A stretch of DNA of 64,000 nucleotides. Origin: Promethearchaeota archaeon (GTDB lineage: Archaea; Asgardarchaeota; Lokiarchaeia; Sigyniarchaeales; SOKP01). Made by a program: the position numbers and the translations under genes. This document shows positions 3,388-27,139 of the stretch, piece after piece. Where the stretch lies: positions 160,001 to 224,000 of the forward strand of contig JAEOUA010000006.1 of the NCBI GenBank assembly GCA_016839555.1, given 5' to 3'. How positions within the stretch are numbered: the stretch's first letter is position 1; the number at the start of each line of letters is the position of its first letter. The notes under the pieces were generated by a model. It ran no database searches, was not told the origin of the DNA, and saw nothing but the letters and a program-made list of their open reading frames with translations.

Positions 3388-4857
3388 ATGGTTGAAATTA
3401 ATGTTACTACTAAAGAGTATTTGACATTAAAAGAAGCAGCAGATCTATTTGAAAAATCTGTGTATAATATATCATATTTAGTTCAATATAGAAGAATTAA
3501 CAAATATTATAAAATAGAAGAAGGAGAAATATTAAAATCTACAAAAATTAAAGGTAAAAATATTAAAAAAAATGCTACACCAGTTGTATCTTTTAATGAA
3601 TTAAATTCATATTTTCAAAAAATCAAAGAGCGAGAAAAGGAGATAATAGAAAAAGTACCAAATTGTAATACAGATTTATTGTTTTTTGATTTATCCGAAA
3701 AGGAAAGGACGAAGCATGTCCATAGATTACATCCCTACCTAGGAAAATTTATTCCCCAACTCGTAGAATATTACCTTAATAGAAATTTTGAGAGAGGGGA
3801 TATTATTTTGGACCCCTTTATGGGTTCTGGAACAACCTTAGTAGAAGCGAATACAAAAAATATGAGATCTATAGGAATTGATGTCTCAAAATTCAATTGT
3901 AAGATTGCAGAAGCTAAAATGAAGAAATACGATTTAAAACTTCTTAAAAAGGAATTTACTGAGATCTTAGAAAAAACAACAATACAATCGTCAAAAAAAA
4001 GAGTAAATGGAGAGATCTTCATAAATGGTACAAAAGTTTTAACAAATTTCATTGATAAAGAATTTAGAGATTTTTCAAAAAAATATGAAACGGAAAATAA
4101 ATACATTAATAAATGGTTTGCCCGACAAACTAAAAAAGAGATGTTAATTTATAAATCTTTGATTCCTAATTATACATATCAAAATTTACTTACTGTGTTA
4201 TTAAGTAGAGCAATAAGATCCGCACGTTTGACTTTTCATTTTCAATTAACTCGCTTAAAAGAGCCAATATATGAACCTTATGTATGTTATAAACATAAGA
4301 ATAAAGTTTGTGTTCCAACTCAATCATTATTGGGCTTTCTCAATAGATATACTAAAGATACTTTAAGGAGAATAAAAGAATTCTCAAAGTTAAGAACCAA
4401 TCAAATACATGAAATAATAAACGATGATTCTCGAAAAGTGGATTTAACAGAGATTTTATCTAGTAATTTTAAAAATGAAAAAATTAATGGAATTATAACC
4501 TCTCCTCCTTATGTAGGTTTAATCAATTATCATAAACAGCATTCTTATGCATATGAACTTTTTGGAATAGAGCAAAATATAGAAAAAGAAATTGGAAGAA
4601 AAGATTTAGGAAAAAGTCAAACAGCAATGGAAGAATATAAAATATCTATTGCCGAAGTTTTTGAAAACATTAAAAGATTTCTAAAGGAGAATGCGAAAGT
4701 TTTTATTGTTGCTAACGATAAAAATGATTTATATCCTGAAATTGCTGAATTATCTGGTTATAAAATTATTGATCGCGATGAGAGACCTGTAACCAAAAAG
4801 GCTTCACGTGAGAGAGCTGTTTATACGGAATCAATATTTCATTTTAAACCAATTTAA
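3388..4857 (+). CDS. Amino-DNA methyltransferase (probably m4C) with N-terminal HTH
   Basis: LHPYLGKF, motif I DPFMGSGTT, then motif IV ITSPPY. The N-terminus YLTLKEAADLFEKS resembles an excisionase/MerR-like HTH. Confidence 0.9.
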   Translation: MVEINVTTKEYLTLKEAADLFEKSVYNISYLVQYRRINKYYKIEEGEILKSTKIKGKNIKKNATPVVSFNELNSYFQKIKEREKEIIEKVPNCNTDLLFFDLSEKERTKHVHRLHPYLGKFIPQLVEYYLNRNFERGDIILDPFMGSGTTLVEANTKNMRSIGIDVSKFNCKIAEAKMKKYDLKLLKKEFTEILEKTTIQSSKKRVNGEIFINGTKVLTNFIDKEFRDFSKKYETENKYINKWFARQTKKEMLIYKSLIPNYTYQNLLTVLLSRAIRSARLTFHFQLTRLKEPIYEPYVCYKHKNKVCVPTQSLLGFLNRYTKDTLRRIKEFSKLRTNQIHEIINDDSRKVDLTEILSSNFKNEKINGIITSPPYVGLINYHKQHSYAYELFGIEQNIEKEIGRKDLGKSQTAMEEYKISIAEVFENIKRFLKENAKVFIVANDKNDLYPEIAELSGYKIIDRDERPVTKKASRERAVYTESIFHFKPI

Positions 4858-4989
4858 ATAATTAAAATTTCAAGGTTTTCTTAAAATTTTATTTTTCTTT
4901 TCAATCTTATTAATTTCACACTTTATTCTAAACTTTCTTTCACTAAATTAGTTGGGTTTTTCTTTTCATTATAAAATAAATTTTCAAAT

Positions 4990-6141
4990 ATGAAAAGTAA
5001 TAATGTTAAGAATGGTTTTGTACCTATATCCGAGAATTTAACATTATTTGAAAAAGATCTATCAAAATTAGAAAAAATAAGATACTTAGATACTCCTAAT
5101 TCTTTTTATAAAGAAGCAGCTTACTCAAAAAAAATAGATGGTAAATATACTTATTATTATTTATTTTCTAAAATCAAATCAAGAGACTATATTGAAGGCT
5201 CAGGATATCTCACTCATGGTTTTGATTTTTATCAGGGGAGTTTTCATGCTCAGATGATAAGAGGTTTAATTAATTCTTGTAATCTCGAGGAAAATTCAAT
5301 AATTTTAGATCCATTTTGCGGATGTGGAACGACTTTAATAGAGAGTAAATTATTAAATTTTAATTCAATTGGTATAGATATAAATCCAATAGCTTGTCTT
5401 AATTCTAAAATCAAGACTGAATTATTGGATATAAACACAGAAATATTAAAAAATAATAATGAAAAATTTTTTGATCTTACTTATTATAGTTTTCTTAAAG
5501 AATTTGATAATTTTTTTGATATCTTAAACTTAGATATTCGAACTCTATTTTTTATTTTTCTTTATACTCGTGCTATTTCTGATCATTATTATATATTGAA
5601 AAACATGAATAAAGCATTTATTGATAATTATCATAACATTATAGCCACTCTTTTGAAATTTAATATTTTAAAAAAATCAATTGATTTACCGATGGGAAAA
5701 ACAAAGATTTATCATTCAGATAATTTGAAAAGGTTGCATCAATTTAAATCTAACTCTATTGACGCAATCATTACATCCCCCCCATATATAGATTTAATTG
5801 ACTATATTTCAAACGATCTAAATCAGATTAAGATTTTTCTGAATGAGTCTCAGATAAAATATCTTAGATTATTATCAATAGGTAATAAATTTTCGAAATT
5901 CTCTCAAACAGAGAAAATATATTGGTATAAAATGGAAAGAGTTTTTTATAAGATTTTTGATATTTTAAAACCTAATCATCATTTTATTTTAATTATCGGA
6001 GATTATAAAAATATGAAAGAGAAATTTCTTAAATTATCGAAAAAAATAGGATTCAAAACAGAGAGAGTTCTCTTAAGAAAAATTATTAATAAAAAAGATC
6101 GAATATCTTATGAGCATGTTCTATTTTTATTAAAAGTCTAA
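4990..6141 (+). CDS. Second amino-DNA methyltransferase (probably m4C)
   Basis: THGFDFYQGSF, DPFCGCGTT, ITSPPY. Confidence 0.85.
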   Translation: MKSNNVKNGFVPISENLTLFEKDLSKLEKIRYLDTPNSFYKEAAYSKKIDGKYTYYYLFSKIKSRDYIEGSGYLTHGFDFYQGSFHAQMIRGLINSCNLEENSIILDPFCGCGTTLIESKLLNFNSIGIDINPIACLNSKIKTELLDINTEILKNNNEKFFDLTYYSFLKEFDNFFDILNLDIRTLFFIFLYTRAISDHYYILKNMNKAFIDNYHNIIATLLKFNILKKSIDLPMGKTKIYHSDNLKRLHQFKSNSIDAIITSPPYIDLIDYISNDLNQIKIFLNESQIKYLRLLSIGNKFSKFSQTEKIYWYKMERVFYKIFDILKPNHHFILIIGDYKNMKEKFLKLSKKIGFKTERVLLRKIINKKDRISYEHVLFLLKV

Positions 6142-6149
6142 GAATAAAA

Positions 6150-6443
6150 TTACTTCATATCTAATTCCATATTCTCAAAATTAATAATTAGTTTTTTATT
6201 AATTAGAGAGTATTTTAATAGTTTATCTTGTTGGTCATAAGTTTTTTTAACAAGCTTTATCTCAACGAGATCTTCAATATAATTATAAGTAGTTTGTGGG
6301 TATTTTATTTTAAATTCTTTAAAAATAACAGAATGAATATCTTGTAGACTTAATTTTTTATCTACTAACAAATTTAATATCCTGATTTTCACCGGAGAAC
6401 TAATAATTTTTAAGATTTTAGAAATATTGTCAATCTTTTTCAT
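6150..6443 (-). CDS. ArsR-type winged-helix transcriptional regulator (possible R-M controller)
   Basis: SSPVKIRILNLL...TYNYIEDLVEIKLV; divergent from the endonuclease gene. Confidence 0.75.
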   Translation of the reverse strand: MKKIDNISKILKIISSPVKIRILNLLVDKKLSLQDIHSVIFKEFKIKYPQTTYNYIEDLVEIKLVKKTYDQQDKLLKYSLINKKLIINFENMELDMK

Positions 6444-6555
6444 ATTATATATAACGTAAAAATTAGTGAAAAATAAGTCTTTTTAGCCTTATTCGACTAT
6501 AATTATCCTAAGCCCGCTAATAAGCTATATAAATAATTTTGATTATGCTTTAATC

Positions 6556-7329
6556 ATGTTATTTAAAGACAATTGGCAGGGAGAAGTTTATAGAATATTT
6601 TATGATTTTTTAAAAAGTAAAAAAGAAAAGATTCAAGAAATCTTTAATTGGGAAAGATATAAAGAGGAAAATCCTTTTCATGCCACTTTAATCGATGATC
6701 CTAAATTCTGGAAAGCATGTAAGATAGAAAGAAGTTTTGTAACAACTTTAGGACAATCAGTTTATGAAGATGTAGCCTTAGCAATTTCGAAATATGTATA
6801 TAAAAATGCTGAAAAAGGTTATACTTATACAAGTTCTATTGATAATGAAGTCTATAAAAAAATTAATATGGTAATTAGAGAATTATACGAGGGAAAGAGA
6901 AAGCCGAATTGGGAAAGTGAAGTAAATTTCATTAAACAATTTAAAAATAATAAAAACTCTAAAATTAATCTAAAAATTACTATGGATTTATATATAAATC
7001 AATTTAAAGATGGTTTACCTTTTTATGCTGAGATAAAATCTCCAAAACCAAATAAGGATCAATGTATGGAAACTAAGCTTAAATTATTAAGAGTTTTTTT
7101 TAGTGATGATTGGAGAGGAAACAACATTTTCTTTGCTTTTCCTTTCAATCCTTATATAACTCGTGATAATTATGATCATCCCCATATAAAAGCAATATTT
7201 GAAATTCCAAGAAGTTCTCGTTTATTAATGGGTGAAGAATTCTGGGATTTATTAGGGGGGAAAGGAACATTTAAAAGGATTCTCGAATTGGCAGATAAAG
7301 CAAGTGATGAGGTTAATTTATTGGAATAG
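6556..7329 (+). CDS. Type II restriction endonuclease, TdeIII/MjaII family
   Basis: NPFHATL, ERSFVTTLGQSVYE, MDLY, EIKSPKPNKDQ, FPFNPY and LMGEEFWDLLGG match my recollection of this family; adjacent MTases. Confidence 0.8.
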   Translation: MLFKDNWQGEVYRIFYDFLKSKKEKIQEIFNWERYKEENPFHATLIDDPKFWKACKIERSFVTTLGQSVYEDVALAISKYVYKNAEKGYTYTSSIDNEVYKKINMVIRELYEGKRKPNWESEVNFIKQFKNNKNSKINLKITMDLYINQFKDGLPFYAEIKSPKPNKDQCMETKLKLLRVFFSDDWRGNNIFFAFPFNPYITRDNYDHPHIKAIFEIPRSSRLLMGEEFWDLLGGKGTFKRILELADKASDEVNLLE

Positions 7330-7582: not shown

Positions 7583-10500
7583 TTAAAATGTATTCAATAA
7601 GTTTTCAGCTTTATCAATCCATTTTTTATCATTCACAGCTTCAGCTAGTTGTTTACCTTTTTCTATATTTTTCCGTGATTCTTCGAGAATCTTAAGTTCT
7701 TTATAGCACATACCCATTTTTATATAGGTCTCATACCTAAAATCTTCATCGAAGTAAAAAGTTGGGTCTTCTTCAATAAATTCTATGGCTTTTCCATATT
7801 GATGAATAGCCTTTTCAAATTCATTTGACCACATTAAAATTTCCCCAAAAGAATCATGATAAAATGCGTTTTTTGGGGTCTTATTTATCAAGCGTTTTAT
7901 TATTTTTAATGCTTCTTCTTTATTTTTCAATTTAGCTTTTATTCGCGCCTTATCCATTAAGTCTATATCTTTTTTATTTAATTCAATAGCTTTCTCAATG
8001 GCCTCAAGGGCTTCATCGTATCTTCCTAATTCAAACAAACAATCTTCCTTAATAATATAGGTATCATAATTATCTGGTAATAATTTATTTGATTTTTCAA
8101 TTGAATTCAAGGCTTCTTCATATCTTCCAAGGAATTTCAAGATATACGCTTTCATTATATAAGCATAGGGATCATCTGGTTCTAAATTAATTGCCTGATT
8201 CTCAATTTTTAATGCTTCTTCATATTTTTTCATTCTCCCATAAATTTCTGCCTTAATTTTATATGACAACGAAATACTTGGATTTAGATTAATAGAAATA
8301 TTAATTTCCTCCAATGCTTCTTGATATTTTTTTAAGCGTGCTAATGTTCTGCTTTTCATATTATGATAGTAATAAAAATTTGGTTCCGCATTAATCAAAT
8401 AATTTATTTCTTCCAAGGCGGCTACATTTTCTTCTATGATTTCAAAAGTTTCTGCTTTAATTTCATGTGAATAAAGTTCTTGACTATCTATTGAAATTGC
8501 TTCAACTATGATTTCTAATGATTCAGAAATTCTATCTAGCCATCGCAGGGCAATTGATTTCATTTGCAATCCATATATATAATTTTGATTTATTTCAAGC
8601 GCTTTTTCAGCATTTTCTAAGCTTTTTTCATATTCTTTTAATTCTATAAAAACTTGTGCTTTATATGCAAAAATATATTCATCATTTGGATGATCTTTAT
8701 TTATTTTTTCTAAATGCTGTTGAGCTTCATCAAAATATTTTTGTTCCATTAAAATATCTACATAGAATAATTGATAATCATAAGGTTCAGAACTTAAGTT
8801 AATTGCCTTCTTTATCAATTCTTTTGCTTTCTCTAACTCCCTCTTTTCATATAAAATGTAAGCTTTTTTAAGCAAAAATATTTCATTCCTTTTATCAAGT
8901 TCAATTGCTTTATCAATGGCTTCAAGAGCTTTATCTTTTTTGTCGATATTATTAAGGACCATTGCTTTATTTATGTATAATAATGGTTCTTTCTCATCAA
9001 TTTTTAATCCCTTCTCTACTGTTTTTAGCGCTATATCGTAATTATTCAGATTATCGCATAAAATCCTACTTTTATCAATATACAGACTTGTTTCTTTTGG
9101 ATTAATCTTAATTGCCTTATTAATAACTTGGATAGCACTATTGAATTTGCCTAGTTTCTCTAAATTTTCGTATTTTAAAGTAAGAATTAAATAATTTTCT
9201 GGATCTAGTTCTAATGCTTGATTTATAATTTTTAACGCGTCGCTAAAATTTCCCTTTTCAGTTAAAATATAGCTTTTCTTTAATAGGAGAAGAGAATTTT
9301 TATTATCTAATTTAATCGCTTGGTCTAAAGTTTCAATAGCTTTATTTAATTTATTTAAATTGAGTAAAATCATTGCTTTATTGATATAAAGAGCGATTTC
9401 ATTCTTATTTATATCAAGACCATTATTTACTGTAACCAAAGCTCGATCATAATCTTTGATGAAGTCGCATAACATTCTGCTTTTCATTACGTAATATTCT
9501 ATCTTATTTGGGTTTATATTAATAAATTCATTAATTTTATCAATATATTGTGTATATTTTCCTTTAGCTTCTAAGATTTCTAAAATATCATGATTTTGAT
9601 TCTCAATATTATTATATAAATTAATCTCTTCTCCAACTTTAAAAGATTGGCTCTCTTTTATTTTATTAATATCTCTTAATTTATTTGTAGGTATCTTTTT
9701 TACTTTCTTAAGAATTTCTTTCGATTGAACTGGACCTTTTTCCTTAACATTATTTCTCTCTTGAATAATTTTTTTTGACATATTCCAAATGTCAAAATTT
9801 CTACTATATTCTTTTCTGGTAAATTTTTCTTTTTCATAAATATCTCTATTTATATCCTTAATAATTATGTCTAATAGGTCATAGAGTGCCTCCTTTAAAT
9901 CTTTATGAAATAATTTATAATTTTGAATTAAGTCTGATAAAATATCTTTGTATAAATAGTCTAAACTTTCAGAATTTAACTCAATACAATCTAAATTATC
10001 AAGATAGTAATATCTTTTAAGATTTAATTTTAAAATATTAACAAAAAGATTTCCATATTCAGTATTTTCTCCAAAAAATAGGGGATTTTCTAATGTACTA
10101 GAATTAATTGTATAAACTCTTTTTTCATAGATTTTTTCTTTCAAAATTTTTTGTTTGAATAGTAACAAATCCGCCTCTGTTACATTATCTTCAATGCCTC
10201 TACCTTCTTCATGCATCTTTTTAATAAAATTTTCAACTGAAATAGTATATTTATTATAAAATTTTGGGTGATTATATACCAAATAAAGAAGAAGTTTATT
10301 AAATTTTCTCTCTGAAGGAAAGGTTTCTTGAAGTTTATCATGTGTTATTTTATTGACTAAATCTAAAAACTGCACTTTTATCTCCTCATCTTTAATTTTA
10401 AAATCATTAAAAAATTCTATTATTTTCTGAATATGTTGCTTTAATTTTTTCTGTTCTAATTTATTCAAGGAATTAAAATCTAAAGAATAGTTTTCTAGTC

Positions 10501-10783
10501 TTTTTAATAGTTCAGTCTCTCCTTTTGGTGTTATTTTATATTCACTATTTCTACCTACATAATAGCTAATGATTAAATCCTCTTTTAATAATTCCTTTGC
10601 ATATTTATGAAATGTATTTTTATTAATACGATTATTATTTTTTTTAGTAGTTATAAAGGTTTCACGTTTTAAAGGGCCAAAAACTGCGAGTGCATAAAGA
10701 ATCTCAACTTTATACCTATCACGATTAGTACTATTTCTAATCTTATTTGGAATCTTGTCTGGAATAATATTATTATTTTTCAT
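7583..10783 (-). CDS. Winged-helix DNA-binding protein with a long C-terminal TPR array
   Basis: N-terminal wHTH (NTFHKYAKELLKEDLI...YKITPKGE) and many 34-aa TPR units (e.g. KAYILKFLGRYEEALNSIEKSNKLLP) over the C-terminal ~650 aa. Confidence 0.85.
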   Translation of the reverse strand: MKNNNIIPDKIPNKIRNSTNRDRYKVEILYALAVFGPLKRETFITTKKNNNRINKNTFHKYAKELLKEDLIISYYVGRNSEYKITPKGETELLKRLENYSLDFNSLNKLEQKKLKQHIQKIIEFFNDFKIKDEEIKVQFLDLVNKITHDKLQETFPSERKFNKLLLYLVYNHPKFYNKYTISVENFIKKMHEEGRGIEDNVTEADLLLFKQKILKEKIYEKRVYTINSSTLENPLFFGENTEYGNLFVNILKLNLKRYYYLDNLDCIELNSESLDYLYKDILSDLIQNYKLFHKDLKEALYDLLDIIIKDINRDIYEKEKFTRKEYSRNFDIWNMSKKIIQERNNVKEKGPVQSKEILKKVKKIPTNKLRDINKIKESQSFKVGEEINLYNNIENQNHDILEILEAKGKYTQYIDKINEFININPNKIEYYVMKSRMLCDFIKDYDRALVTVNNGLDINKNEIALYINKAMILLNLNKLNKAIETLDQAIKLDNKNSLLLLKKSYILTEKGNFSDALKIINQALELDPENYLILTLKYENLEKLGKFNSAIQVINKAIKINPKETSLYIDKSRILCDNLNNYDIALKTVEKGLKIDEKEPLLYINKAMVLNNIDKKDKALEAIDKAIELDKRNEIFLLKKAYILYEKRELEKAKELIKKAINLSSEPYDYQLFYVDILMEQKYFDEAQQHLEKINKDHPNDEYIFAYKAQVFIELKEYEKSLENAEKALEINQNYIYGLQMKSIALRWLDRISESLEIIVEAISIDSQELYSHEIKAETFEIIEENVAALEEINYLINAEPNFYYYHNMKSRTLARLKKYQEALEEINISINLNPSISLSYKIKAEIYGRMKKYEEALKIENQAINLEPDDPYAYIMKAYILKFLGRYEEALNSIEKSNKLLPDNYDTYIIKEDCLFELGRYDEALEAIEKAIELNKKDIDLMDKARIKAKLKNKEEALKIIKRLINKTPKNAFYHDSFGEILMWSNEFEKAIHQYGKAIEFIEEDPTFYFDEDFRYETYIKMGMCYKELKILEESRKNIEKGKQLAEAVNDKKWIDKAENLLNTF

Positions 10784-10842: not shown

Positions 10843-10933
10843 TTATATCAAGGTCCCTTAAGGTAAATATATTATCGATTAATTATTTTATATTATAAAA
10901 AAAATGATATATAGTCTAAAGTGAGGTTTAAAC

Positions 10934-12670
10934 ATGAATTATGCAAATTTTAGCAAATGGAAATATGAATCTTATTTAATTTCATTAGGATCAAAAAATA
11001 ATAAATTTGAAGAGCGAAAATTAAAATTAAGGTTTAGATTAATTGGAGTTCCTTCTAATCATGCTATTAAGGAATTTTTGGTTGAAACGAGTAACACTTT
11101 TGGTCAAATTAAGAGAAGTGTACAAAGAGAATATAGATTAAATCCCATAATTGATATTAATTTCATTTATAAAGGAAAAGTTTTACGAAATGATTTGAGA
11201 ATTTCTCAAATTGGTGATCCCAAAATAATAGATCCAATAACTATAATATGTATGAATTCAGGCGGAGCAAAAAGAGTTAGAGAAGATGAAGATGAAATTA
11301 AAAAATTAATTCACGTACTTAGTGAAAAAATAATACCATATCGGTTTCGGTGGATTTCGAGACGAGTAGAAAACAAATTTAAGGAACTTAGCGATAATAT
11401 TCCTCTTTTAAAACTAATATTTGCACATAAATTTGGAAGAGAATTAACATCTTTACTTGAAAATTTTTCTCATGGCCATAGATTTGACTTAAGTGATTTT
11501 CTCCATTATAATAATAAGTATGGAAATAATCCACATAAATTATTAGATCTTTTACTGGAGGATTTTATTAAGAATTACAATGAATATAATAGATATAGTG
11601 AATATAAAGATTTTAGGATTCTTATCTTTTCTACTTTACTAGAACTAATTCCATTAATTCCCATTAATGAGGAATCGGTTTTTTATGAAGCACTAAAACT
11701 TATAAATGACATTCAGATTGAAGAAAATGGAGAAATATTTCAAAAATTGTTAGAAATATTAAAAAATTCAAAAATTTCAATAGAAAAGAAGCTATTGACA
11801 TTTAATGTCATTGATAATAAAAATTTTGAAACATTACTTGATGATTTTAAATCATTTATATTAATGAATGATTTAGAATGTCCCTCAGAACTGAAGTTAG
11901 GTATTATAGACAGATTCGAAAGAGAAAATCCAAAATATTCTTCCATATTAGATAAAATAACTCCAAATCTGATTAAACTAATAGAACAAAATATTAATCC
12001 AGAATTAGAAAAAAAAATAAATAAAATTTTATTTAATCAGGGAATGATTTGCGGAAATTGTGGAAGAATTATCAATGAACATAAAAACTTTTCAGAAATT
12101 ACCTTTTGTGAAGTATGTAATAAAACTTTTTGTCAAGAGTGTATTGAAAATGAAGATCTTCTTAATGAATGTGAGTTTTGTAATAGATTTATCTGCAAAA
12201 CCCACGAGGAAGCATATAGCATAATTAATCTTGAAGAGAGAAATGTTGTTTTATGTGATATTTGTTTAGAAGAGAGGAAATATCAAAGTAATCAGATAAT
12301 ATGCAAATTATGCCAAAATAAAATCTTAAAATGCAGTAATGATGAATGTGAAATAAATATCTGTAGGAAACATCAAATTCGATGTGTTATTTGCGATAAA
12401 AGGTATTGTTCGAAATGTAAAGAAAAATTTATGAGAGCGTTTGATTTTGGATTAGCTTGTCATAAATGTGTTGAAACGGAAATTATAGAATGCGAAGAAT
12501 GCGGAATTGAAATAGTCAAAAATTATAATGCATATAGCTGTTCAGATTGTGGAAAATATTTATGCGAAGAACATATTTTCAGTGTACCTGATTGGGGCAA
12601 AAAATACTGTAAGGAATGTCTAGAAAATTGGAAGGAATATACATTTCGAATGCAAGCTTTTGGACATTAA
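10934..12670 (+). CDS. Ubiquitin-like domain (internal GG) fused to a helical region and a Cys/His-rich multi-zinc-finger domain
   Basis: aa ~28-111 is beta-grasp-like (LRFRLIGVP...TFGQIKRSVQREYRLNP..INFIYKGKVL...ITIICMNSGG). From aa 373 to the end there are about 16 CxxC/CxxH pairs. Confidence 0.75.
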   Translation: MNYANFSKWKYESYLISLGSKNNKFEERKLKLRFRLIGVPSNHAIKEFLVETSNTFGQIKRSVQREYRLNPIIDINFIYKGKVLRNDLRISQIGDPKIIDPITIICMNSGGAKRVREDEDEIKKLIHVLSEKIIPYRFRWISRRVENKFKELSDNIPLLKLIFAHKFGRELTSLLENFSHGHRFDLSDFLHYNNKYGNNPHKLLDLLLEDFIKNYNEYNRYSEYKDFRILIFSTLLELIPLIPINEESVFYEALKLINDIQIEENGEIFQKLLEILKNSKISIEKKLLTFNVIDNKNFETLLDDFKSFILMNDLECPSELKLGIIDRFERENPKYSSILDKITPNLIKLIEQNINPELEKKINKILFNQGMICGNCGRIINEHKNFSEITFCEVCNKTFCQECIENEDLLNECEFCNRFICKTHEEAYSIINLEERNVVLCDICLEERKYQSNQIICKLCQNKILKCSNDECEINICRKHQIRCVICDKRYCSKCKEKFMRAFDFGLACHKCVETEIIECEECGIEIVKNYNAYSCSDCGKYLCEEHIFSVPDWGKKYCKECLENWKEYTFRMQAFGH

Positions 12671-12714
12671 AATTTAAATTTATTAAAATTAATAAAAAAA
12701 AAGGTGAAATTATA

Positions 12715-13332
12715 ATGAATGAAGAAAAATATTCCGAGATTAAGGAGGATTTAAAAAATATAATTCATTCCTTAGTTGGATTGTGCCCTGCCTATAATTC
12801 AATAGTACGAATTCTGCGTGATGGTAATGAGAAATTTATAGGCTATGTAAAGGCGGCTTATCCTGAAATCCTAGATCGTGATATATTGTCTGTACTTCTT
12901 GGTTTGTTTGATGTTGAAACAGGAGAAACTTTATTGGTTAAGAGGAATGGAATAGGGGATAATCTAGTGGATTTAATCAATAAAATCGAGGAAAAACTTG
13001 ATAAGAAAGAAATAAGAGATTTAGTATCTGAATCGATGGGAGAGGGTGTTCCAAATCCTGTAAAGGATTATATTGAGGGATGCATTGATGTTCTTAAAAA
13101 GAATGATGAAATTGCTTTAAAATTAATAAAACTAATCGCGGCAGATGGTTGGTATAATTTAAATAATTTAATTGAAAAAGTAAATGAAACATATAAATTA
13201 AATTTTAATAATGAAGAAATTTTCAAACATTTGAAAAATCTAGAAGATTTAGGACTCCTTGAATCTCTGAATGAAAACAGAATCGAAATAATAAAGAAGT
13301 ATTGTGAGCATATTCTTAACCTAACAAAATAG
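12715..13332 (+). CDS. Hypothetical protein with C-terminal winged helix
   Basis: Likely start is ATG 12715 after AAGGTGA. The C-terminal EIFKHLKNLEDLGLLES is wHTH-like. Confidence 0.65.
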   Translation: MNEEKYSEIKEDLKNIIHSLVGLCPAYNSIVRILRDGNEKFIGYVKAAYPEILDRDILSVLLGLFDVETGETLLVKRNGIGDNLVDLINKIEEKLDKKEIRDLVSESMGEGVPNPVKDYIEGCIDVLKKNDEIALKLIKLIAADGWYNLNNLIEKVNETYKLNFNNEEIFKHLKNLEDLGLLESLNENRIEIIKKYCEHILNLTK

Positions 13333-13337
13333 AAGGT

Positions 13338-15314
13338 GTGAAAAAAATCCAAAATCTTAAAAAAAAGCCTATAATAAATAAAAGAAAAAAATTAAATAGA
13401 GAAAAAAGTAATAGATTACAAACTAAAGAGGATAATACAAGTTTAAATGAGGGAAATCAATTAGAAATTAAGCAATTAATACTAAAAAAGCAATCCCCTT
13501 TATTTAAACAGAATGAACATAATTTAATAGAGAAATCGAGAAAACTTAAATACAATAGTTTATCTAATGATAAAATATTTAAAAGGCTCAATAATGAAAA
13601 AAAAGTAGGAGAAGTTTTAAAACCGGTTAAAATTGAATCTGTAAAAAAATTTATTACTAATGATATTGAGGAAAGAAAAGAAGATTTTTTCTTTGAAAAG
13701 AAAAAACCAGAATTTAGAAAATTTAAAAAATCCAATACTAAAACATCTCTTTCAAGATTTATTCATCGAAATCACTTTAAATTTGAAAAATTAAATGAAA
13801 ATATAAATACCCAACTAATTAAATTCCATATGGGAAAAAAATTCTCTTTCAAACCAGAGTTAAAAGTGATAAAAAGAAGTAATATTAATTTAATACCTTC
13901 ATTTCAAGACAGTGAAAAAAATGATAAAAACATTTTAAGGAATAGAGGAATAAGTATGAATAGTGATGATAATACTGGAGTTAGAAAAGAATCAAAAAAG
14001 GAAATAAAAGAAAAATCTAGAAAAAAAGATAATATTAAGAAAAAATCTAATGAATTTGGTGATATCCAAGATAATGGAGAAGATGATTTATTTAATAAAA
14101 TATTTCATAGCAATATTCAAGGTTTTCCAAAAGTTTTGGATTCAGAAGGTCCCTATTTAATATTAGTTGGAGTTAGAAAAAATATTAAAGTCACAGACAC
14201 CCTTCAAATACTTTTAAAAAAGATATATCGAAATGTTGTTGGAGGGAAACCAGATCCAGAAAATATTGGAGATAAAGAGGATTTAAGGGATAATGGTGCC
14301 AAAGCAGGTAGAAATATAATTCTTCTAAATGAAGAATTATTCAAGCAAAAGACCTATGAAAATTATAAGGATCCTTTAAATATTAAAACGAATCTTTTAG
14401 ATGAAGAATGGATTCTAAAAAAATTAGATGAAAATTATAGCCAGAGTTTCGGATTTCTCATACTCGAAGTTCCATTTGATATTCTTGTAAAAGCATATAA
14501 AAGCTTAACCAAAAATATCCGAAAAATTAAACCTTCTCGGATAATATTATTAAGACCATTAAATAAATATACTCTGGAAGAATTGAATTTAACAACTAAC
14601 GAATTAGAAGGAAAAACAGATAAAAAAGATCCTATTACTAAAATAAGGAATTTTTCTAAAGCTCTTCATGGTTTTATTGTACCAAAAGAGGATAAAAAAT
14701 GGCAAAAGGGTAAAACATTTGATGACATTTTTCTAAGCTGTAGAAATGAAGAAGATCTCTTTAAGAAGAAGTTAAAGGAAAAATTTTCAATAAAAGTAAA
14801 TGGTAAAAATATTCCCATCGAAAGACTAGTTAAAATTTCACCAAGAGAGAAACTAAAAGATTTTAAAAAAGAAAGTGAATTACATTTTTTCTTAAAAACC
14901 ATTCTTGTTAGATATTATTATGAAATTAAATGTTTAGAACTTGATCAGGTAAAAACAGAATATGAAACGCCATTAGCAAATGATTCTGATAACGAGATAA
15001 TACCTGATATTGAAATTAAAGAAAAAAATAAAGTTATTGAAGTTGAAACATTATACGGAACGGTTAATCCTATAGGAAAAATCACAGAAACAATAGAAAA
15101 ATATAAAAAAAGAAAATTTTACAAAATAAATGTAATTTTAACCAATTATGACATGTTCTTCTATTACAAGTTCATAAAGAATATAAAGGAATTCTATAAT
15201 AAAGAGGGCTATAAAATTGATTTTATGACTTTCAATTTTTCAAAAAGAAAGATTGATTTAATAGGAATAAATGAATTTAAAAAGAAATTTAATAATGATA
15301 ATGAGTTAAAATAA
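13338..15314 (+). CDS. Large protein with low-complexity basic N-terminus and C-terminal PD-(D/E)xK-like nuclease domain
   Basis: ESELHFFLK...VKTEY...IIPDIEI...VIEVETL (E-x-E variant). GTG start after GAAGG, 5 nt after the upstream stop. Confidence 0.6.
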   Translation: MKKIQNLKKKPIINKRKKLNREKSNRLQTKEDNTSLNEGNQLEIKQLILKKQSPLFKQNEHNLIEKSRKLKYNSLSNDKIFKRLNNEKKVGEVLKPVKIESVKKFITNDIEERKEDFFFEKKKPEFRKFKKSNTKTSLSRFIHRNHFKFEKLNENINTQLIKFHMGKKFSFKPELKVIKRSNINLIPSFQDSEKNDKNILRNRGISMNSDDNTGVRKESKKEIKEKSRKKDNIKKKSNEFGDIQDNGEDDLFNKIFHSNIQGFPKVLDSEGPYLILVGVRKNIKVTDTLQILLKKIYRNVVGGKPDPENIGDKEDLRDNGAKAGRNIILLNEELFKQKTYENYKDPLNIKTNLLDEEWILKKLDENYSQSFGFLILEVPFDILVKAYKSLTKNIRKIKPSRIILLRPLNKYTLEELNLTTNELEGKTDKKDPITKIRNFSKALHGFIVPKEDKKWQKGKTFDDIFLSCRNEEDLFKKKLKEKFSIKVNGKNIPIERLVKISPREKLKDFKKESELHFFLKTILVRYYYEIKCLELDQVKTEYETPLANDSDNEIIPDIEIKEKNKVIEVETLYGTVNPIGKITETIEKYKKRKFYKINVILTNYDMFFYYKFIKNIKEFYNKEGYKIDFMTFNFSKRKIDLIGINEFKKKFNNDNELK

Positions 15315-15316
15315 AA

Positions 15317-16465
15317 GTGATTAGATTGTCTATTGGAAATAACATAGAAAAAATTTTAAATGATAAAGAAAGCGAAATTGTTGAATTTAAAGCATCATTT
15401 AAATGGGATATAGAGAAAAAAGAAATTAATAATAACCTTCTTGATGAAGTATCTGAAACGGTGGCAGCTTTCATGAATTCAAGAGGAGGTAATTTATTTA
15501 TTGGAATTAAGGATAATGGCGAAATCTATGGATTAGCAAATGATATAAAACATTGTTTTCAAAAAAGCGTTGATGTACTACAACAAAATGTCCCTCAATC
15601 AATAAAAGATAATTTAGGAGGAGCTGGTACGAATTATACAATGGATATTGAAAAATATGAAGGTAAAAAAATATGTATAATTAAGGTTAGTCCATCCGAT
15701 GAACCAATTTTTTTTCAAAACCGTGATTTCTATGTTAGAAGAGGAACATCAGACTATAAATTAAATTCTAAAGAAACATATGAATATATCAAAATTCGAT
15801 TTCTAGAATATAAAAAGTTGAGGTATGAGATCCCCAAAGTAATTAATCCTTTTGATGAAAGAATCGATATAATTCTGAAAATCATTAAAAATTATGTTAT
15901 AGAATATTATTTAAGCGGTCTTATAGGAAATTTTGATCGCTCAATTAATAAAGAAATTTTTAATTTAACAAAAATTATAAATAAATTTGATTCTTCTTAT
16001 TTACCAGAATTTATCAGATTACCAAATAATAAACCTAATTATCAATATCTTTCAAATCTTTTTTTTAATTGTAGTGCTAATGATTTAAAGTTAATGTTAA
16101 GTAATAAAGAAATTGAAAAAGACAAAATTAAAAGAAGTATTTATTTACTCTCTGGAGATTTAGCATATATGATTTTTGAAAATTATAAAAAACATTTGGA
16201 AAAGACTGTATTTTCTCTAAAAAAAATACATCGTCTCTTTGTTTTTGAAACAGAAAATAATGAATATTTTAAAGAAAGAATTAGTCTAATTAAATTTAAA
16301 GAAGCTTTAAAAATCCTCAAAGAATATGGATTAATAAGTCTTTATGGTGAGGAATATAAAGGAAATAGCTCAGAAACGGAATTACATATATTAGATAAGT
16401 TAAGATTAAAGGATTATGTACGGCAGAGTTCGATTTCTTTCCTAATTAACAAAAAGCGAGATTAA
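15317..16465 (+). CDS. Schlafen/AlbA_2-domain protein with C-terminal extension
   Basis: ESEIVEFKAS, VAAFMNSRGGNLFIGIKDNG, FYVRRGTS; starts 2 nt after the upstream stop. Confidence 0.85.
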   Translation: MIRLSIGNNIEKILNDKESEIVEFKASFKWDIEKKEINNNLLDEVSETVAAFMNSRGGNLFIGIKDNGEIYGLANDIKHCFQKSVDVLQQNVPQSIKDNLGGAGTNYTMDIEKYEGKKICIIKVSPSDEPIFFQNRDFYVRRGTSDYKLNSKETYEYIKIRFLEYKKLRYEIPKVINPFDERIDIILKIIKNYVIEYYLSGLIGNFDRSINKEIFNLTKIINKFDSSYLPEFIRLPNNKPNYQYLSNLFFNCSANDLKLMLSNKEIEKDKIKRSIYLLSGDLAYMIFENYKKHLEKTVFSLKKIHRLFVFETENNEYFKERISLIKFKEALKILKEYGLISLYGEEYKGNSSETELHILDKLRLKDYVRQSSISFLINKKRD

Positions 16466-16569: not shown

Positions 16570-19500
16570 TTAAGTATGGTATCGAAATTTTATCCTTAAT
16601 TTATCTTTATTCATATAAAAATTCAATTCTTTCTCATTATTGCAATAATCAAGCGCAAATCGCCGAATTTTTGCCGCCGTTTGCATTAATTCTTTATCAT
16701 TGGGAATGTAAGTCAAGAAATTCTTGCTACAAATCAGAATGAATTTCGCCCGCGCCCGTGAGCTCAGCACATTGAACCGATTCAAATTGTAAATGAACTC
16801 CTCCTCGCTTAAAAGTTGATCTTGAGCGGAAATGCCAATAGAAGTGATAATGAAATCCCGAGCGGAGCCTTGAAATTTTTCCACCGAGTAAATAGTCTTT
16901 TTCAGCAATTCCATTAATTCTCGTTCCCCAAGCGCGTTGAGGTCATAATCATTCAAAATTTGATGAAGTTGTCTGATAATTAAGCGTCCTTGAGCATTAT
17001 GAGGCGCCACCACACCGAGTTTCTCCGTCCAAAACATTCGCTGAATATTCCTTAATTCTTTTTCAAAAGCTTTCGATTTTTCCGGTATATTCATTAAATA
17101 ATACCCCAAAACCAGTTGAATAACGATATAAGCCTCGAGAGGACTAACTGCAGTTTCATATTTGTTCTGATGGATAATAGATTCCACAGCAATTCCCTTA
17201 TCCAATACATCAAGCACCCAGCTCTCTATTTTGGGCTCTTTCCCAGCAGCGATCCAATCTTGAAGGCGGTGAAAATCGCCCTCAATCGTTTTATCTTTAT
17301 TCGTTAATGGCGCAATATCGCGTTCATATATGTCCATATAATTTGTAAAGTCCACGATGTCTTGATGGCTTCTATAGTTGATTTGTAATTGGTCGTTAGG
17401 GATGCGATGATTATCCGCATAAAAACCAAAGAGATTATCCAGAATGGGCTCAAGTTTTTTCGGCGGAAGGACTTGCTGTACAGGAGGTAATTGATTTTGG
17501 TCGCCCACAATTACTAATTTAGTTAACTCATCAACATCGGGGCTTCTTTTAGTTTCTTTAGAGACTAAATATAATTCATTTAATTTCTCGATATCAGAAA
17601 TTTGTTGACCAGAGGCCGCCGATAAATCTTTAGACATAATTTCGACACCGAAATTTTTAACATATAGAAGTGCAGACATAATCTGATTAACTGGCACTTG
17701 CGAGCTTTCATCTACAACAATAAGGTCAAATGCAAATCCCAAATTAATAAAGCTTAGTTTACCATATCTCTTCTTTTTTAAATCAAACAATTGATGCGCA
17801 TTGGTAAAAAGGATGAGATTTTCATTATGTGGCGCTAAGATATCATAAGATTTTTTATCGCTTTCATGAGTAATTTCCGCGAATACCTTAGCTCCAGCAC
17901 CATTTATTTGTCTCATCTCTAGAGTTTTTTTATCTTTAAAATACGCATCATAAAGCGTTTTTGAACCGTGTAAGGAGGGTGGTTCTTGATCTCTGGAGTG
18001 AAGAAAGACGAGTTGAGCCTTCGCAGCTTCGGTTAAATTTCCCGTATTGTCTAAACTATTAAAAATCGTTTCAAAGACTACCCGAAGAGCTGCATAAGAA
18101 AACGCCATAACCAGCACTTTCACGGGCCCTCTATTTTTTTCCTTTTGTCTATGAATATATTCATCGATAAGCATAGCAATGGTTTGGGTTTTTCCGGTTC
18201 CGGGAGGCCCTTGAATCCCATAGATGGTATACTTCATTGCGTTAAGGATGGCTTGTTCTTGGGAGGCATCGGGAGGTGGAGAAATCGGTGTTAATAATTT
18301 TTTAGGAGTATAAGAATAGGAGGGTAGCAGATTCGGGGCATAGAGATAGACCTCGGGCAGCCTTCCTTCGTAGGGGAACGGATCTGGGTACTCCAAGGCA
18401 GTCTTTTGAGTCATATTCCATTTAAACGCCAATATTTTTCCCAGCCAAGATTCTCCAAAATTTTCTCTTAATAGCAATTTTTCTAATCTTTGAGCCCACG
18501 GATTTGATTCATAAGAATACAAATAAAAAGTATCATCAATAAGAATTCGCTCCCCAAGTTGTACTAAAGCTTGCCTTTTGTTTCGAAGATCTATTATTTT
18601 TTGAGAAATTTTATTAACTAAGGAGTAATCTTGAAGATAAGGCGACTGTTCCTCGAGCTCCTGGATATAATTATCCAACAAATCAGTACTCCAGGTTTGA
18701 GTTCTAACCTGCCAGTGATTATTATCCCAATTCAAATCTTCAATCACAATTCTCCATTTATAATTTTTATAGCTGGGAGCATCTCGTAACATTTCTGGTA
18801 CGCAGATTACCCATGCTCCCTCATCAATTTTCACATTTGAAGACATTCCACCAAGTTCAAACTCATAAAAATACCCATTATATCCCCCGTAGCTACCACT
18901 TCCACTTGTCTCAGGAATCTGCCAGATACCATTGATTTTGGCCGATTTTAATTTTCCTACACCATAAGTGGGATACATACATCGAATGTTATCAAGTTCA
19001 AACTCATTATAGGCAGTCGTATAATGTTCAAATAAATACCAAATTTGCGCAATATTGTGATATGATTCAGGTAATTCATAATCGAAAAAATCTTCCATCG
19101 CCCGTGGCTTATTATATCCCAAAAGATAAGATTTCCCATGCTGTTGAAAAACTTGCCTTAACTTATCAAGCGTTCGCACTTTTTTTATCATCTGTTTCTT
19201 TAATTCGCTGAGAAGTGTTGCCTTTTTTTGGCCGTCATTATATAAGTAGCGATACCATTGCTGGAAATCAATAAAATTGAAATGGCGGTTCCAGAAAACC
19301 TCGTAGAAGATTTGCTCTTTATACCCAAATATGGGTTGATATTTTGGTATTTTAGATAGATATTTCGCCAGTTCATGCCAAGTATAATTAATAATCAAAG
19401 GAAAACTCATGGTGGTTTCGGCAAATGCTCTGAGATTAAAGAACTTCTTATGATGATAAGGATGCTTTACGTTCGATTCCGAGGGATTGAACCATCGAAG

Positions 19501-21387
19501 GATATATAATGTCTTTCTGCGTAGCGCAGGACTATCATTTAAGTAATCCAAATTTCGCTCCAGAAATTCTTCTAAATATTCTATTTGTTCTTGAGACCAA
19601 TAATAAATGGCACAATTGAGAGATTTCCCGTCCACTTCGGTGAACCATTCCAAATTTTGGATAAAGATCAGTATTGCATATAAGAGCGAAATTACTTCTT
19701 CTGAGAATTTATTCTCATCCTCTTGAGTAAGTCCTGTATTGACAAGAGAAAAATCTAGTTCAAGAGTACTATAATGCATTTTTCCGCCACTAGAAGCCTT
19801 TTTCAACTGTAGCCAGGGACGATCCTTATTTTTATGCATTTTAAATAGAAATGTCAGAGCAGAAGCAAATCTATTGAGTGAATGTATGACCCGCTTTTCT
19901 ACATTATCCTCTTCAATCCCATCGATGTTGAATTGAGTTAATATCTGATTCTGTATATAGTCCAAGTTATTCGTATCTTCAAAAAATTTATTCCATAGAG
20001 TCCACCATCTCACGAATTTATCATATTGGTTCAAATAATCTGAAACAAAACAGTTTAAATTAAAGGATACCGCGCAGACAACATCGTGGATGGGATCCGT
20101 TTCAAAGTCGAGGATTAAAGAGATCGGGCTATATTTTGGGATGGATATAGAATAAATTTCTCCAATCTTTGGGCTGAGAGGTTTATTTTCTAAGAGCGCC
20201 TGTGCTCGTTGTTTTAGAAAAGGTTTTTCCGCATAGAGAGGGGTGGGAACAATATTTTTTGGGTGTGCATCGATTTTATCAGCCACATCTTTAATAGTCT
20301 CATATATAGGGGCTTGACAATCTTTTAATTGTTCTGAAATAGTTTTTGAAGTATAAGGGATCAGTTGGAGGTCCCATTGGTCTCGAGGATAACAGTCATC
20401 GCATTTCAGCGTTTTTTTACAATCTTCTAAATAGGGGCATCTGGCGCAGATTGATTGGAGATTAAGCGGAATCTCCTCTATACTGCACGGAATTTCCTCT
20501 TTAAATTCCCGGAGTTTATTGGAAAGCGACTCATACAGAATAATGGTGTCTTTAAACGGCATCTTCACGATTTTTCGGCGGATCTCAGAGATACCGAGTT
20601 TCATTTGCTTAACTTTAGTATATCGGGGAAAAATGCCATTTTCATCAACGCGTACGAAAAATTTATCATCTAACCCGTGAATGTGTAAGAAATGATTGAA
20701 GGCCATAAAATAAAAGAGAATTTCGAAAAAATACTTCTTTCCGATACTATCCGGCCGAGACAGCTTGACATCGATGATTGATATGCCGACTCTTGTATCC
20801 AACTCTTTTTCTGGTACTTCTCTGATGGTACCGTCAGCCAATAACTCTCTAATTTGTTCTTTTTCCTTGAACTTTACCTTCGAAAATCTGGTTGCTTCTA
20901 CTTTTTTATTTCCTATTAATAAAAGGTCTGGTCGAAGCGTTTCCGAATAATCAGTAGGTATTTCTTCGCCAGGAGAAAGTTGAAAAAATTCCCAGATAAA
21001 TTGCTCGGGTGTCTCAAAATCATATTCAATAAGACATAATTCTTGGTCTGTGCCATCAACTATTATTTTTTCATATAGCTTTATAAAGAAATCAGGTGTT
21101 AACTGTGGCCCTTTTAAAACATCCCAAGGAGCTTTCTGGAGCACTTTATTCTTATTATTTGGAAAGATAGTATCATAAACTTCATTCTCGTAATTTCTAC
21201 CTAGTTTGATAATGAGTGCGCCTATTTTTTCACGCTCCAAAGGTTCAACTTCGCGATATGGGTGAATCCAAGAGCTATCATTCTTTCCAAGATTCAGAAA
21301 GAGCTGCCGTTCGCAGTTAGATTCCAAATAATCTCCGAGATTTTGCTTATTCAAATGATTTTTAGTCATCTGATATGATAATATCAA
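16570..21387 (-). CDS. Fe-S RecB/Cas4-like nuclease + RNase H-like domain + SF1B (Dna2/UPF1-like) helicase
   Basis: SNCERQL plus CARCPYLEDC (4-Cys staple); RPDLL, IDVKL, EILFY; ILDFETDP; QGPPGTGKT, DESSQ, VGDQNQLPP, NYRSH, VAPHNAQ, SVEKFQG, RFNVLSSRAR. The start may be ATG 21369. Confidence 0.88.
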   Translation of the reverse strand: MILSYQMTKNHLNKQNLGDYLESNCERQLFLNLGKNDSSWIHPYREVEPLEREKIGALIIKLGRNYENEVYDTIFPNNKNKVLQKAPWDVLKGPQLTPDFFIKLYEKIIVDGTDQELCLIEYDFETPEQFIWEFFQLSPGEEIPTDYSETLRPDLLLIGNKKVEATRFSKVKFKEKEQIRELLADGTIREVPEKELDTRVGISIIDVKLSRPDSIGKKYFFEILFYFMAFNHFLHIHGLDDKFFVRVDENGIFPRYTKVKQMKLGISEIRRKIVKMPFKDTIILYESLSNKLREFKEEIPCSIEEIPLNLQSICARCPYLEDCKKTLKCDDCYPRDQWDLQLIPYTSKTISEQLKDCQAPIYETIKDVADKIDAHPKNIVPTPLYAEKPFLKQRAQALLENKPLSPKIGEIYSISIPKYSPISLILDFETDPIHDVVCAVSFNLNCFVSDYLNQYDKFVRWWTLWNKFFEDTNNLDYIQNQILTQFNIDGIEEDNVEKRVIHSLNRFASALTFLFKMHKNKDRPWLQLKKASSGGKMHYSTLELDFSLVNTGLTQEDENKFSEEVISLLYAILIFIQNLEWFTEVDGKSLNCAIYYWSQEQIEYLEEFLERNLDYLNDSPALRRKTLYILRWFNPSESNVKHPYHHKKFFNLRAFAETTMSFPLIINYTWHELAKYLSKIPKYQPIFGYKEQIFYEVFWNRHFNFIDFQQWYRYLYNDGQKKATLLSELKKQMIKKVRTLDKLRQVFQQHGKSYLLGYNKPRAMEDFFDYELPESYHNIAQIWYLFEHYTTAYNEFELDNIRCMYPTYGVGKLKSAKINGIWQIPETSGSGSYGGYNGYFYEFELGGMSSNVKIDEGAWVICVPEMLRDAPSYKNYKWRIVIEDLNWDNNHWQVRTQTWSTDLLDNYIQELEEQSPYLQDYSLVNKISQKIIDLRNKRQALVQLGERILIDDTFYLYSYESNPWAQRLEKLLLRENFGESWLGKILAFKWNMTQKTALEYPDPFPYEGRLPEVYLYAPNLLPSYSYTPKKLLTPISPPPDASQEQAILNAMKYTIYGIQGPPGTGKTQTIAMLIDEYIHRQKEKNRGPVKVLVMAFSYAALRVVFETIFNSLDNTGNLTEAAKAQLVFLHSRDQEPPSLHGSKTLYDAYFKDKKTLEMRQINGAGAKVFAEITHESDKKSYDILAPHNENLILFTNAHQLFDLKKKRYGKLSFINLGFAFDLIVVDESSQVPVNQIMSALLYVKNFGVEIMSKDLSAASGQQISDIEKLNELYLVSKETKRSPDVDELTKLVIVGDQNQLPPVQQVLPPKKLEPILDNLFGFYADNHRIPNDQLQINYRSHQDIVDFTNYMDIYERDIAPLTNKDKTIEGDFHRLQDWIAAGKEPKIESWVLDVLDKGIAVESIIHQNKYETAVSPLEAYIVIQLVLGYYLMNIPEKSKAFEKELRNIQRMFWTEKLGVVAPHNAQGRLIIRQLHQILNDYDLNALGERELMELLKKTIYSVEKFQGSARDFIITSIGISAQDQLLSEEEFIYNLNRFNVLSSRARAKFILICSKNFLTYIPNDKELMQTAAKIRRFALDYCNNEKELNFYMNKDKLRIKFRYHT

Positions 21388-25894: not shown

Positions 25895-27139
25895 TTAATC
25901 CTTAAGCATAATTTTATTTTCATCAACTTTTTTTAGAAATTCTATCAAAATTCTATAGCAATTCCAGAGGTTTTGAAAATCCAATTTATCGATGGTATCA
26001 TCTGTGGTGTGATAGTGTGTCGCAAATCCTTCTTTTGGCGACCCTACGAGTGAGCAACACGTAATATTATTTCGCGAATATGCCATAGAATCTGTGTAGC
26101 CCGAAACATTACCTATTGTATGTGAAACATCTAAATCTGTCGCGATTTTGGACAGTTCTTCGCCGAGGGTTCGGGAAAGAGGAACTAATGAGTATAATTC
26201 TCTAATATCTATTTTCTGAGTAGAATCCCTGCCACCGACCATATCAATATTAACCACAAGTGCATCTTTCAATTCAGCAAAATGTTTTTTGGAAAAGCGT
26301 TTACTCCCTCGATCTCCAATCTCCTCACAGCCATGTGAAACTAGCCAAACTTCTGTAGTTTCTAATCCTCCTAAGGTGTTCAAGTGCTTCGCAAGTTCAA
26401 AAATAATAGCGATAGATGTTAAATTGTCATCTGCGCCCATAACCGGTGTATGTGAAACGCATTTAATTATTGTATAAATGAGGAGAGGGATTAGAGCCGT
26501 CAAAATTAAAAGGAGACTTAAATCAACTGCGGGGACAAATAGGAACGAAATTTCAAATACATATAGTATTATTTTCAAGATGTAAATTCCAAGCAAAAGA
26601 AAGCTCAACATAACTGGGATTCCCATTATTGTAGTGAAACGCTTCGGCCACCGTTTTAGAATTGGAAATTCCCAATTAGAATCATGATGCCCTCCGATTA
26701 AAACGGTGTGTTTAACTGCTTTTTTTGGTGTAAATCTCCCATATACATTAGTGGATTCTTTTGTTTTAAAAAGCGGATCGATGAATTCGATATTGCGCAA
26801 TAGATTTGTTTGAATAACGATGAATGAGATCACCATCAATATCAATGAAAATAATAGAGGGATGAGATTAGGATAAAAAAAGTAAATCCAATATAAGACG
26901 GTAGTAAGTATTATATTTACCATTGAAATACGATATGTAGCTCGATAGGAGCCTGGATGGCAATAAAAATGTTCTATAGTTGCATCATCAGTATACTTTT
27001 TAAAGGTTTCTAAGATAAATGTGGCGCATTCTGCTTCTTGGATACTACATGGCGGTCTGGGACCAATCGTATCACATATGATTTGGATTGTGTTTTGCAT
27101 TGAATCTTTAATCTCTTCTTTTCCATTCAAAAGATACAT
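25895..27139 (-). CDS. M28-family membrane metallopeptidase (copy 1)
   Basis: GGHHDS, GADDN, GCEEIG, NIDMVG, YHTTDD; four TM segments. The true start is probably TTG 27130 after GGAGG. Confidence 0.85.
   Translation of the reverse strand: MYLLNGKEEIKDSMQNTIQIICDTIGPRPPCSIQEAECATFILETFKKYTDDATIEHFYCHPGSYRATYRISMVNIILTTVLYWIYFFYPNLIPLLFSLILMVISFIVIQTNLLRNIEFIDPLFKTKESTNVYGRFTPKKAVKHTVLIGGHHDSNWEFPILKRWPKRFTTIMGIPVMLSFLLLGIYILKIILYVFEISFLFVPAVDLSLLLILTALIPLLIYTIIKCVSHTPVMGADDNLTSIAIIFELAKHLNTLGGLETTEVWLVSHGCEEIGDRGSKRFSKKHFAELKDALVVNIDMVGGRDSTQKIDIRELYSLVPLSRTLGEELSKIATDLDVSHTIGNVSGYTDSMAYSRNNITCCSLVGSPKEGFATHYHTTDDTIDKLDFQNLWNCYRILIEFLKKVDENKIMLKD

Follow-up and report, generated by a model that had tools for sequence, protein, structure and literature searches.

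What does a ubiquitin-like (Ubl) domain ending in Gly-Gly do at the front of a zinc-finger protein in a Lokiarchaeial genome: is it a leader to be cut off, or an integral part of the protein? We analysed the open reading frame that raises this question, at positions 10934–12670 (forward strand, as are all its parts) of a 64,000-nucleotide stretch of DNA (the window), preceded by a ribosome-binding site, GTGAGGT, at 10921–10927. Sequence, structural model and homologues concur on a protein of 578 amino acids consisting of a Ubl, a helical solenoid and an eight-zinc array. An N-terminal extension of low model confidence (aa 1–28, 10934–11017), similar to the 20–30-aa extensions of other island-type Ubl paralogues, precedes a ubiquitin-like β-grasp domain (aa 29–111, 11018–11266) that ends in Gly110-Gly111 (11261–11266), with a putative cleavage point after Gly111. 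A flexible linker (aa 112–115, 11267–11278) leads into an all-helical, HEAT/ARM-like α-solenoid (aa 116–368, 11279–12037), which is followed by sixteen Cys/His pairs for about eight zinc ions (aa 373–562, 12050–12619) and by a C-terminal helix with a WKxY motif (12620–12667), conserved in the homologues and present in the model. This confirms the observation, made in an earlier note on this DNA, of a single frame with a Ubl, a Gly-Gly and about 16 Cys/His pairs. The fusion is real, rare and apparently undescribed; literature searches, of incomplete coverage, found no paper on a Ubl-solenoid-zinc fusion, and neither PADLOC nor PHROG matched the protein.

The predicted fold of the Ubl is the ubiquitin β-grasp, as the note had proposed, and the domain is a paralogue of a free Ubl whose family is found in 141 of the 161 genomes of the class. 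PF00240 was matched by 43 of 47 family members (E 0.05). The fused Ubl scored 21.7 bits, below the Pfam cut-off of 25.4; the genome's free paralogues, at 41.4 and 37.0 bits, were above it. The top profile and fold matches of the fused Ubl include Get5 and Rad23, tied with ubiquitin itself, while an identity as Ufm1 was rejected, as none of the 47 members matched a Ufm1 profile at E 0.05. Free members carry an invariant TQAGG near the C-terminus, and 18 of 23 sampled free orthologues have one or two variable residues after the Gly-Gly, which implies a processing protease if the free Ubl is conjugated. The host genome encodes two free Ubls of this family, one ending GG-Val and the other GG. Aligned with them, as the note had suggested, the fused Ubl is 48% identical to the GG-Val copy and 40% to the GG copy, whereas free copies are 72–84% identical to one another, and the tail VMATQAGG has become ICMNSGG. 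Fused Ubls retain the hydrophobic core. Between the protein studied here (P0001) and its homologue P0002, identity is 55% in the Ubl, 45% in the solenoid and 57% in the zinc array.

Ubls of the same family also occur within very large proteins and ahead of variable C-terminal parts, as in polymorphic toxins (P0014, P0033, P0049 and P0053; loci L033:4202-16864, L038:1-4779, L031, L032, L034, L035, L036, L037 and L039). Some of these parts gave weak LAGLIDADG and RNase-like Pfam rows, others look nuclease-like by eye, and the junctions read GG, GS, GA, GN, GR or AA. At L041:1083-1745 a Ubl of this family is fused through Ala-Gly to a roadblock/LC7 domain.

The Gly-Gly of the fusion stands in register with G75-G76 of ubiquitin at the end of the fold, which bears out the claim made for it. 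In the model it lies in a low-confidence linker (pLDDT <50 at residues 110–114) ahead of a helix, suggesting that the junction is flexible. The residue that follows the junction is small (Ala, Thr, Ala) in all three Ubl-bearing homologues (P0001, P0002 and P0057). The conservation that the note had proposed to check among fusion homologues held only in part: the first glycine is retained in all three and the pair in two, but P0057 has Gly-Cys, two further homologues have no Ubl, and the pair is not retained in excess across 29 fusions of the Ubl. In these sequences, which are not independent of one another, glycine persists at the two positions in 69% and 48%, respectively, and positions invariant in the free copies are kept in 59% on average, so that retention of the Gly-Gly is not higher. 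Gly or Ala occupies the first junction position of 26 of the 29, a pattern that would fit either a protease site or a linker. Several island Ubls are frameshifted or have no Gly-Gly.

Machinery potentially able to cut the fusion is present, since the HxH-x7-SxxD motif is intact in six JAMM proteins encoded by the genome. There is no E1, E2 or JAB on this contig, in agreement with the note's view that the protein would rely on machinery encoded elsewhere. The E1-E2-JAB operon of the genome lies on another contig and carries its own, different Ubl, ending Ala-Gly-Lys, so that the six JAMM proteins are at most candidate proteases for the fused Ubl; a complex prediction for the Ubl (aa 25–122) with the operon JAMM scored 0.00 and gave no answer. 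The archaeal CsRpn11 cleaves linear ubiquitin fusions after Gly-Gly, tolerates a Gly78Ala change and works better with a short linker (PMC6043591). As Gly78Ala is accepted, even a Gly-Cys junction may be cut; the enzyme is, however, specific for the ubiquitin of its own organism. The flexible junction, the small residues after it and the six intact JAMM proteins support the plausibility of cleavage. Locus L045:1100-5458 (G000 C6:156599-160957) holds an operon of Ubl, E1, E2 and JAMM genes and, after it, the gene of a membrane protein that weakly matches RING. At L046 (G000 C6:214884-222456) three MPN/JAMM genes are clustered; one of them has no catalytic motif, which recalls an active/inactive pair.

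The remainder of the protein, the solenoid and zinc array (the core), is known from five loci, and its nearest homologues carry names from Lokiarchaeota and Promethearchaeia, which points to a Loki-type Asgard host. At the P0003 and P0004 loci it occurs without a Ubl, and is thus able to stand alone. The Ubl is a facultative add-on to the core, a feature that the earlier note had missed. P0002 has an insertion of about 220 aa, a ParB-HTH module, between the Gly-Gly and the core, which leaves the Ubl-GG as a leader. Pattern scans for the core in genome, metagenome and viral contigs gave no further relatives, and a search among longer proteins returned P0002 only. Elsewhere the core genes neighbour NYN, SNF2, NTPase or type I restriction domains.

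No family could be assigned to the solenoid in searches, and none of the Pfam zinc-finger families matches P0001. From its sequence, the array may be read as interleaved treble-clef fingers. The B-box/LIM-like spacing previously attributed to it did not hold up: the strict B-box1, B-box2 and LIM consensus patterns are absent, Pfam gave no match, and the B-box lead, at 0.82, was under the noise mark. FYVE ligand spacing was found in two modules (aa 373–416 and 520–562; EEA1 FYVE, E 0.003), and the basic R(R/K)HHC lipid-binding motif of FYVE is absent. Atlas searches returned sub-threshold rows only.

The gene lies within a stretch of about 50 kb that is mostly 22–25% GC, against 29–30% for the contigs, and that encodes BrxC-, PglZ- and BrxL-like proteins, methylases, a TdeIII-type endonuclease, a Schlafen protein and a superfamily-1 helicase. 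This setting, also missed earlier, is a defence island; with no tRNA found in or near it, it is delimited by GC content and by the genes present. Upstream and divergent is a TPR gene (7583–10783, reverse strand), 46%-identical homologues of which adjoin island Ubl genes in other loci. On the forward strand downstream follow d1 (12616–13332, start probably at 12715), with a weak winged-helix match and a weak resemblance to genes after P0002 (pairwise E 0.003); d2 (13338–15314), whose C-terminus looks PD-(D/E)xK nuclease-like by eye and which has a homologue downstream of P0002; and a Schlafen/AlbA_2 gene (15317–16465), the last of the co-oriented run. The P0002 locus has the same order of divergent TPR gene, fusion, weak d1 homologues and d2 homologue. 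Diverged Ubl paralogues recur beside homologues of the TPR gene (46%, 46% and 34% identity) or beside an NYN gene, as a free Ubl with GGG at its end, as a frameshifted copy, with a tail after GA, or joined to other cargo. This recurrence suggests that the fusion arose when an island-borne Ubl gene joined its downstream neighbour. Orthology between the TPR gene and the winged-helix gene that adjoins the housekeeping Ubl was considered and rejected. No copy of the NYN cassette gene turned up in the 161 class genomes at E 1e-20. A sigma-70 promoter scan, a model ill-suited to archaea, gave hits at chance level.

Several other features of such islands were noted. A recurrent island head consists of a divergent TPR gene, a small ORF, an NYN gene, a Ubl and a variable gene (HerA-like, SNF2, or methylase with ResIII), some parts being absent from some loci (L055:2470-7319, L058, L063:2003-12327, L057 and L024). 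Two methylase genes and a TdeIII-family endonuclease (3388–7329, +) form a type II restriction-modification system. A 1605-aa superfamily-1 helicase (16570–21387, −; Mokosh MkoA, E 1e-24), with an N-terminus that looks nuclease-like by eye, has a GC content above that of its neighbours and a 35%-identical paralogue on C1. A 911-aa ORF (21705–24440, +) shows PIWI-like acidic motifs by eye, and an Argonaute identity was not confirmed by Pfam, PADLOC or PDB searches. Two closely similar membrane peptidase-like genes (25895–27139 and 32832–34067, −) are an apparent local duplication. Upstream of the window, L052 and L053 (G000 C5:134000-161500) extend the island with BREX-like genes (BrxC, PglZ and BrxL), a radical-SAM gene with a viperin-profile match, a TGT-like gene (by eye) and methylases. 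In a relative, at L054:2944-13811, the d2 homologue forms the end of a 1388-aa protein, which is flanked by a Piwi gene on one side and by NurA-, HerA- and Mre11-like genes on the other.

The reading we favour, tentatively and at somewhat short of an even chance, is that the protein serves a Lokiarchaeial defence island as an accessory scaffold and carries a host-cleaved Ubl leader. Its working unit would be the solenoid and zinc array, a non-enzymatic binding surface, to the front of which an island-borne paralogue of the host's GG-ending ubiquitin would have been fused in frame. The fusion would act as a ubiquitin precursor: the host JAMM that matures the free Ubl for conjugation would recognise the diverged copy and cut after Gly111, yielding a free Ubl-GG and a core with a new N-terminus that may act in defence. 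For cleavage count the register of the Gly-Gly, the flexibility, the small following residues, the ParB placement, the leaderless core, the maintenance of the Ubl between P0001 and P0002, the extra residues of the free orthologues and the six intact JAMM proteins; against it count the drift from the free Ubl, the changed tail, the specificity of CsRpn11, the Gly-Cys homologue, the average Gly-Gly retention, the island Ubls that are frameshifted or have lost the Gly-Gly, and the different Ubl of the E1-E2-JAB operon. The lack of any defence-library match to the protein itself also weighs against the favoured reading. It is also possible, though we find it doubtful, that the Ubl is an integral, uncleaved handle for a proteasome ATPase, Cdc48, JAMM or E1, as in Rad23, Get5 and Cuz1/ZFAND1, with solenoid and zinc array perhaps binding a client for the Ubl to deliver and the Gly-Gly inherited and tolerated as a linker. 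A domain kept 55% identical between homologues while diverging from the free modifier would fit such a handle, as would the Gly-Cys of P0057, glycine retention without excess, and matches to Get5 and Rad23, although these are tied with ubiquitin. Eukaryotic integral UBLs, however, usually lose the Gly-Gly, of which the first glycine is kept here in all three homologues and the pair in two, and the absence of the Ubl from two homologues would be odd for an essential handle.

In an improbable alternative the Ubl is only a passenger. The leading gene of a mobile island, encoding an accessory Ubl, would have lost its stop codon and fused to the downstream gene, with at most a benefit for folding or expression. 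The same neighbourhood (divergent TPR and/or NYN, then Ubl) indeed holds free, frameshifted or unrelated-cargo-fused Ubls, and the core exists without one. Repeated fusion is possible, since the three fused Ubls did not resolve as a single clade (p-AU 0.23) in a tree too weak to tell one fusion event from several. Against a mere passenger, the Ubl is as conserved between P0001 and P0002 as the rest of the protein, and its hydrophobic core is kept across a deep divergence. The earlier suggestion of a decoy for viral proteases gained no support. A junction serving as a tripwire, at which a viral protease or deubiquitinase would free the core to activate the nuclease-like and Schlafen products, would suit the island setting with its co-oriented putative effectors and the presence of d2 and, weakly, d1 after the gene in two loci; the neighbours differ at the three other loci, and a host with six intact JAMM proteins and a GG-ending modifier would risk setting it off; we consider this reading very unlikely. 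The comparison with Parkin and ZFAND4, and a RING-type or Parkin-like E3 ligase with an N-terminal Ubl, fared no better. The Ubl and many zinc fingers would suit a ligase, one homologue matches IBR weakly (E 0.011, short of the cut-off), and Foldseek gave weak rows for RBR ligases (E >0.03). Yet four homologues contain no compact RING and no IBR/RING2 pattern in scans for RING and RING1-IBR-RING2 spacing, the sole RING regex match stretches over 99 residues, passing over other ligands, the AN1 pattern is absent (a Cuz1 row reached E 2.2 only), and no E2 lies nearby; we give a ligase hardly any credence.

Eukaryotic Ub-eL40, Ub-eS31 and FUBI-eS30 likewise join an N-terminal β-grasp domain through an in-register Gly-Gly to a cargo also found without it. 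FUBI, although a diverged Ubl, is still cut off. Here, in contrast, the cargo is a rare island protein rather than a housekeeping one, cleavage is putative and one homologue has Gly-Cys. Eukaryotes make ubiquitin as GG-linked fusions (PMC11354881); if cut, the present fusion works in the same manner, and its membership of this class is putative. Archaeal GG-ending ubiquitins with C-terminal extensions are known from Caldiarchaeum subterraneum, where CsRpn11 cuts the precursor and artificial linear fusions (PMC6043591), and from Helarchaeia as pro-ubiquitin (10.1101/2023.07.25.550441). Their natural extensions are 4–9 residues long and the ubiquitin is encoded with E1/E2/E3 genes, whereas in the present protein 467 residues follow the Gly-Gly and the genes of the Ubl family are not linked to the E1-E2-JAB operon. 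Cuz1/ZFAND1, ZFAND4 and Parkin also combine a Ubl with zinc fingers, but the present protein has no AN1, RING or RBR, has an α-solenoid in between and retains the Gly-Gly, and homology is confined to the Ubl fold. Bacterial Bil (ISG15-like) operons likewise place a Ubl in a defence context (PMC11354881), but encode E1, E2 and JAB beside it; this locus encodes none of them and gave no match in PADLOC. Since defining features are missing, the protein cannot be placed in the E3, ZFAND or Bil families.

The core is rare (five loci), which limits its general importance. The same Ubl, however, precedes unrelated cargo in about 29 sequences, and Lokiarchaeia might, as we suggest with considerable reserve, put their GG-ending ubiquitin in front of island and toxin-like proteins quite generally, as a leader to be removed by JAMM proteases of the cell in which these proteins act. 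In the literature, searched with incomplete coverage, we found no description of natural long ubiquitin fusions in Asgard archaea, the described archaeal precursors being short-tailed. As a natural substrate, the fusion offers a way to find out what several uncharacterised Loki JAMM proteases do, and a probe for a Ubl found in nearly 90% of class genomes yet unlinked to the E1-E2 operon. If the junction is not cut, the protein illustrates a modifier turning into an integral Ubl domain. If it is cut, the archaeal sisters of eukaryotes possess linear ubiquitin fusions together with their processing and employ them in conflict systems; and should the general-leader reading be true, this would be a prokaryotic counterpart of the eukaryotic linear ubiquitin fusions, with the present gene as one case among many.
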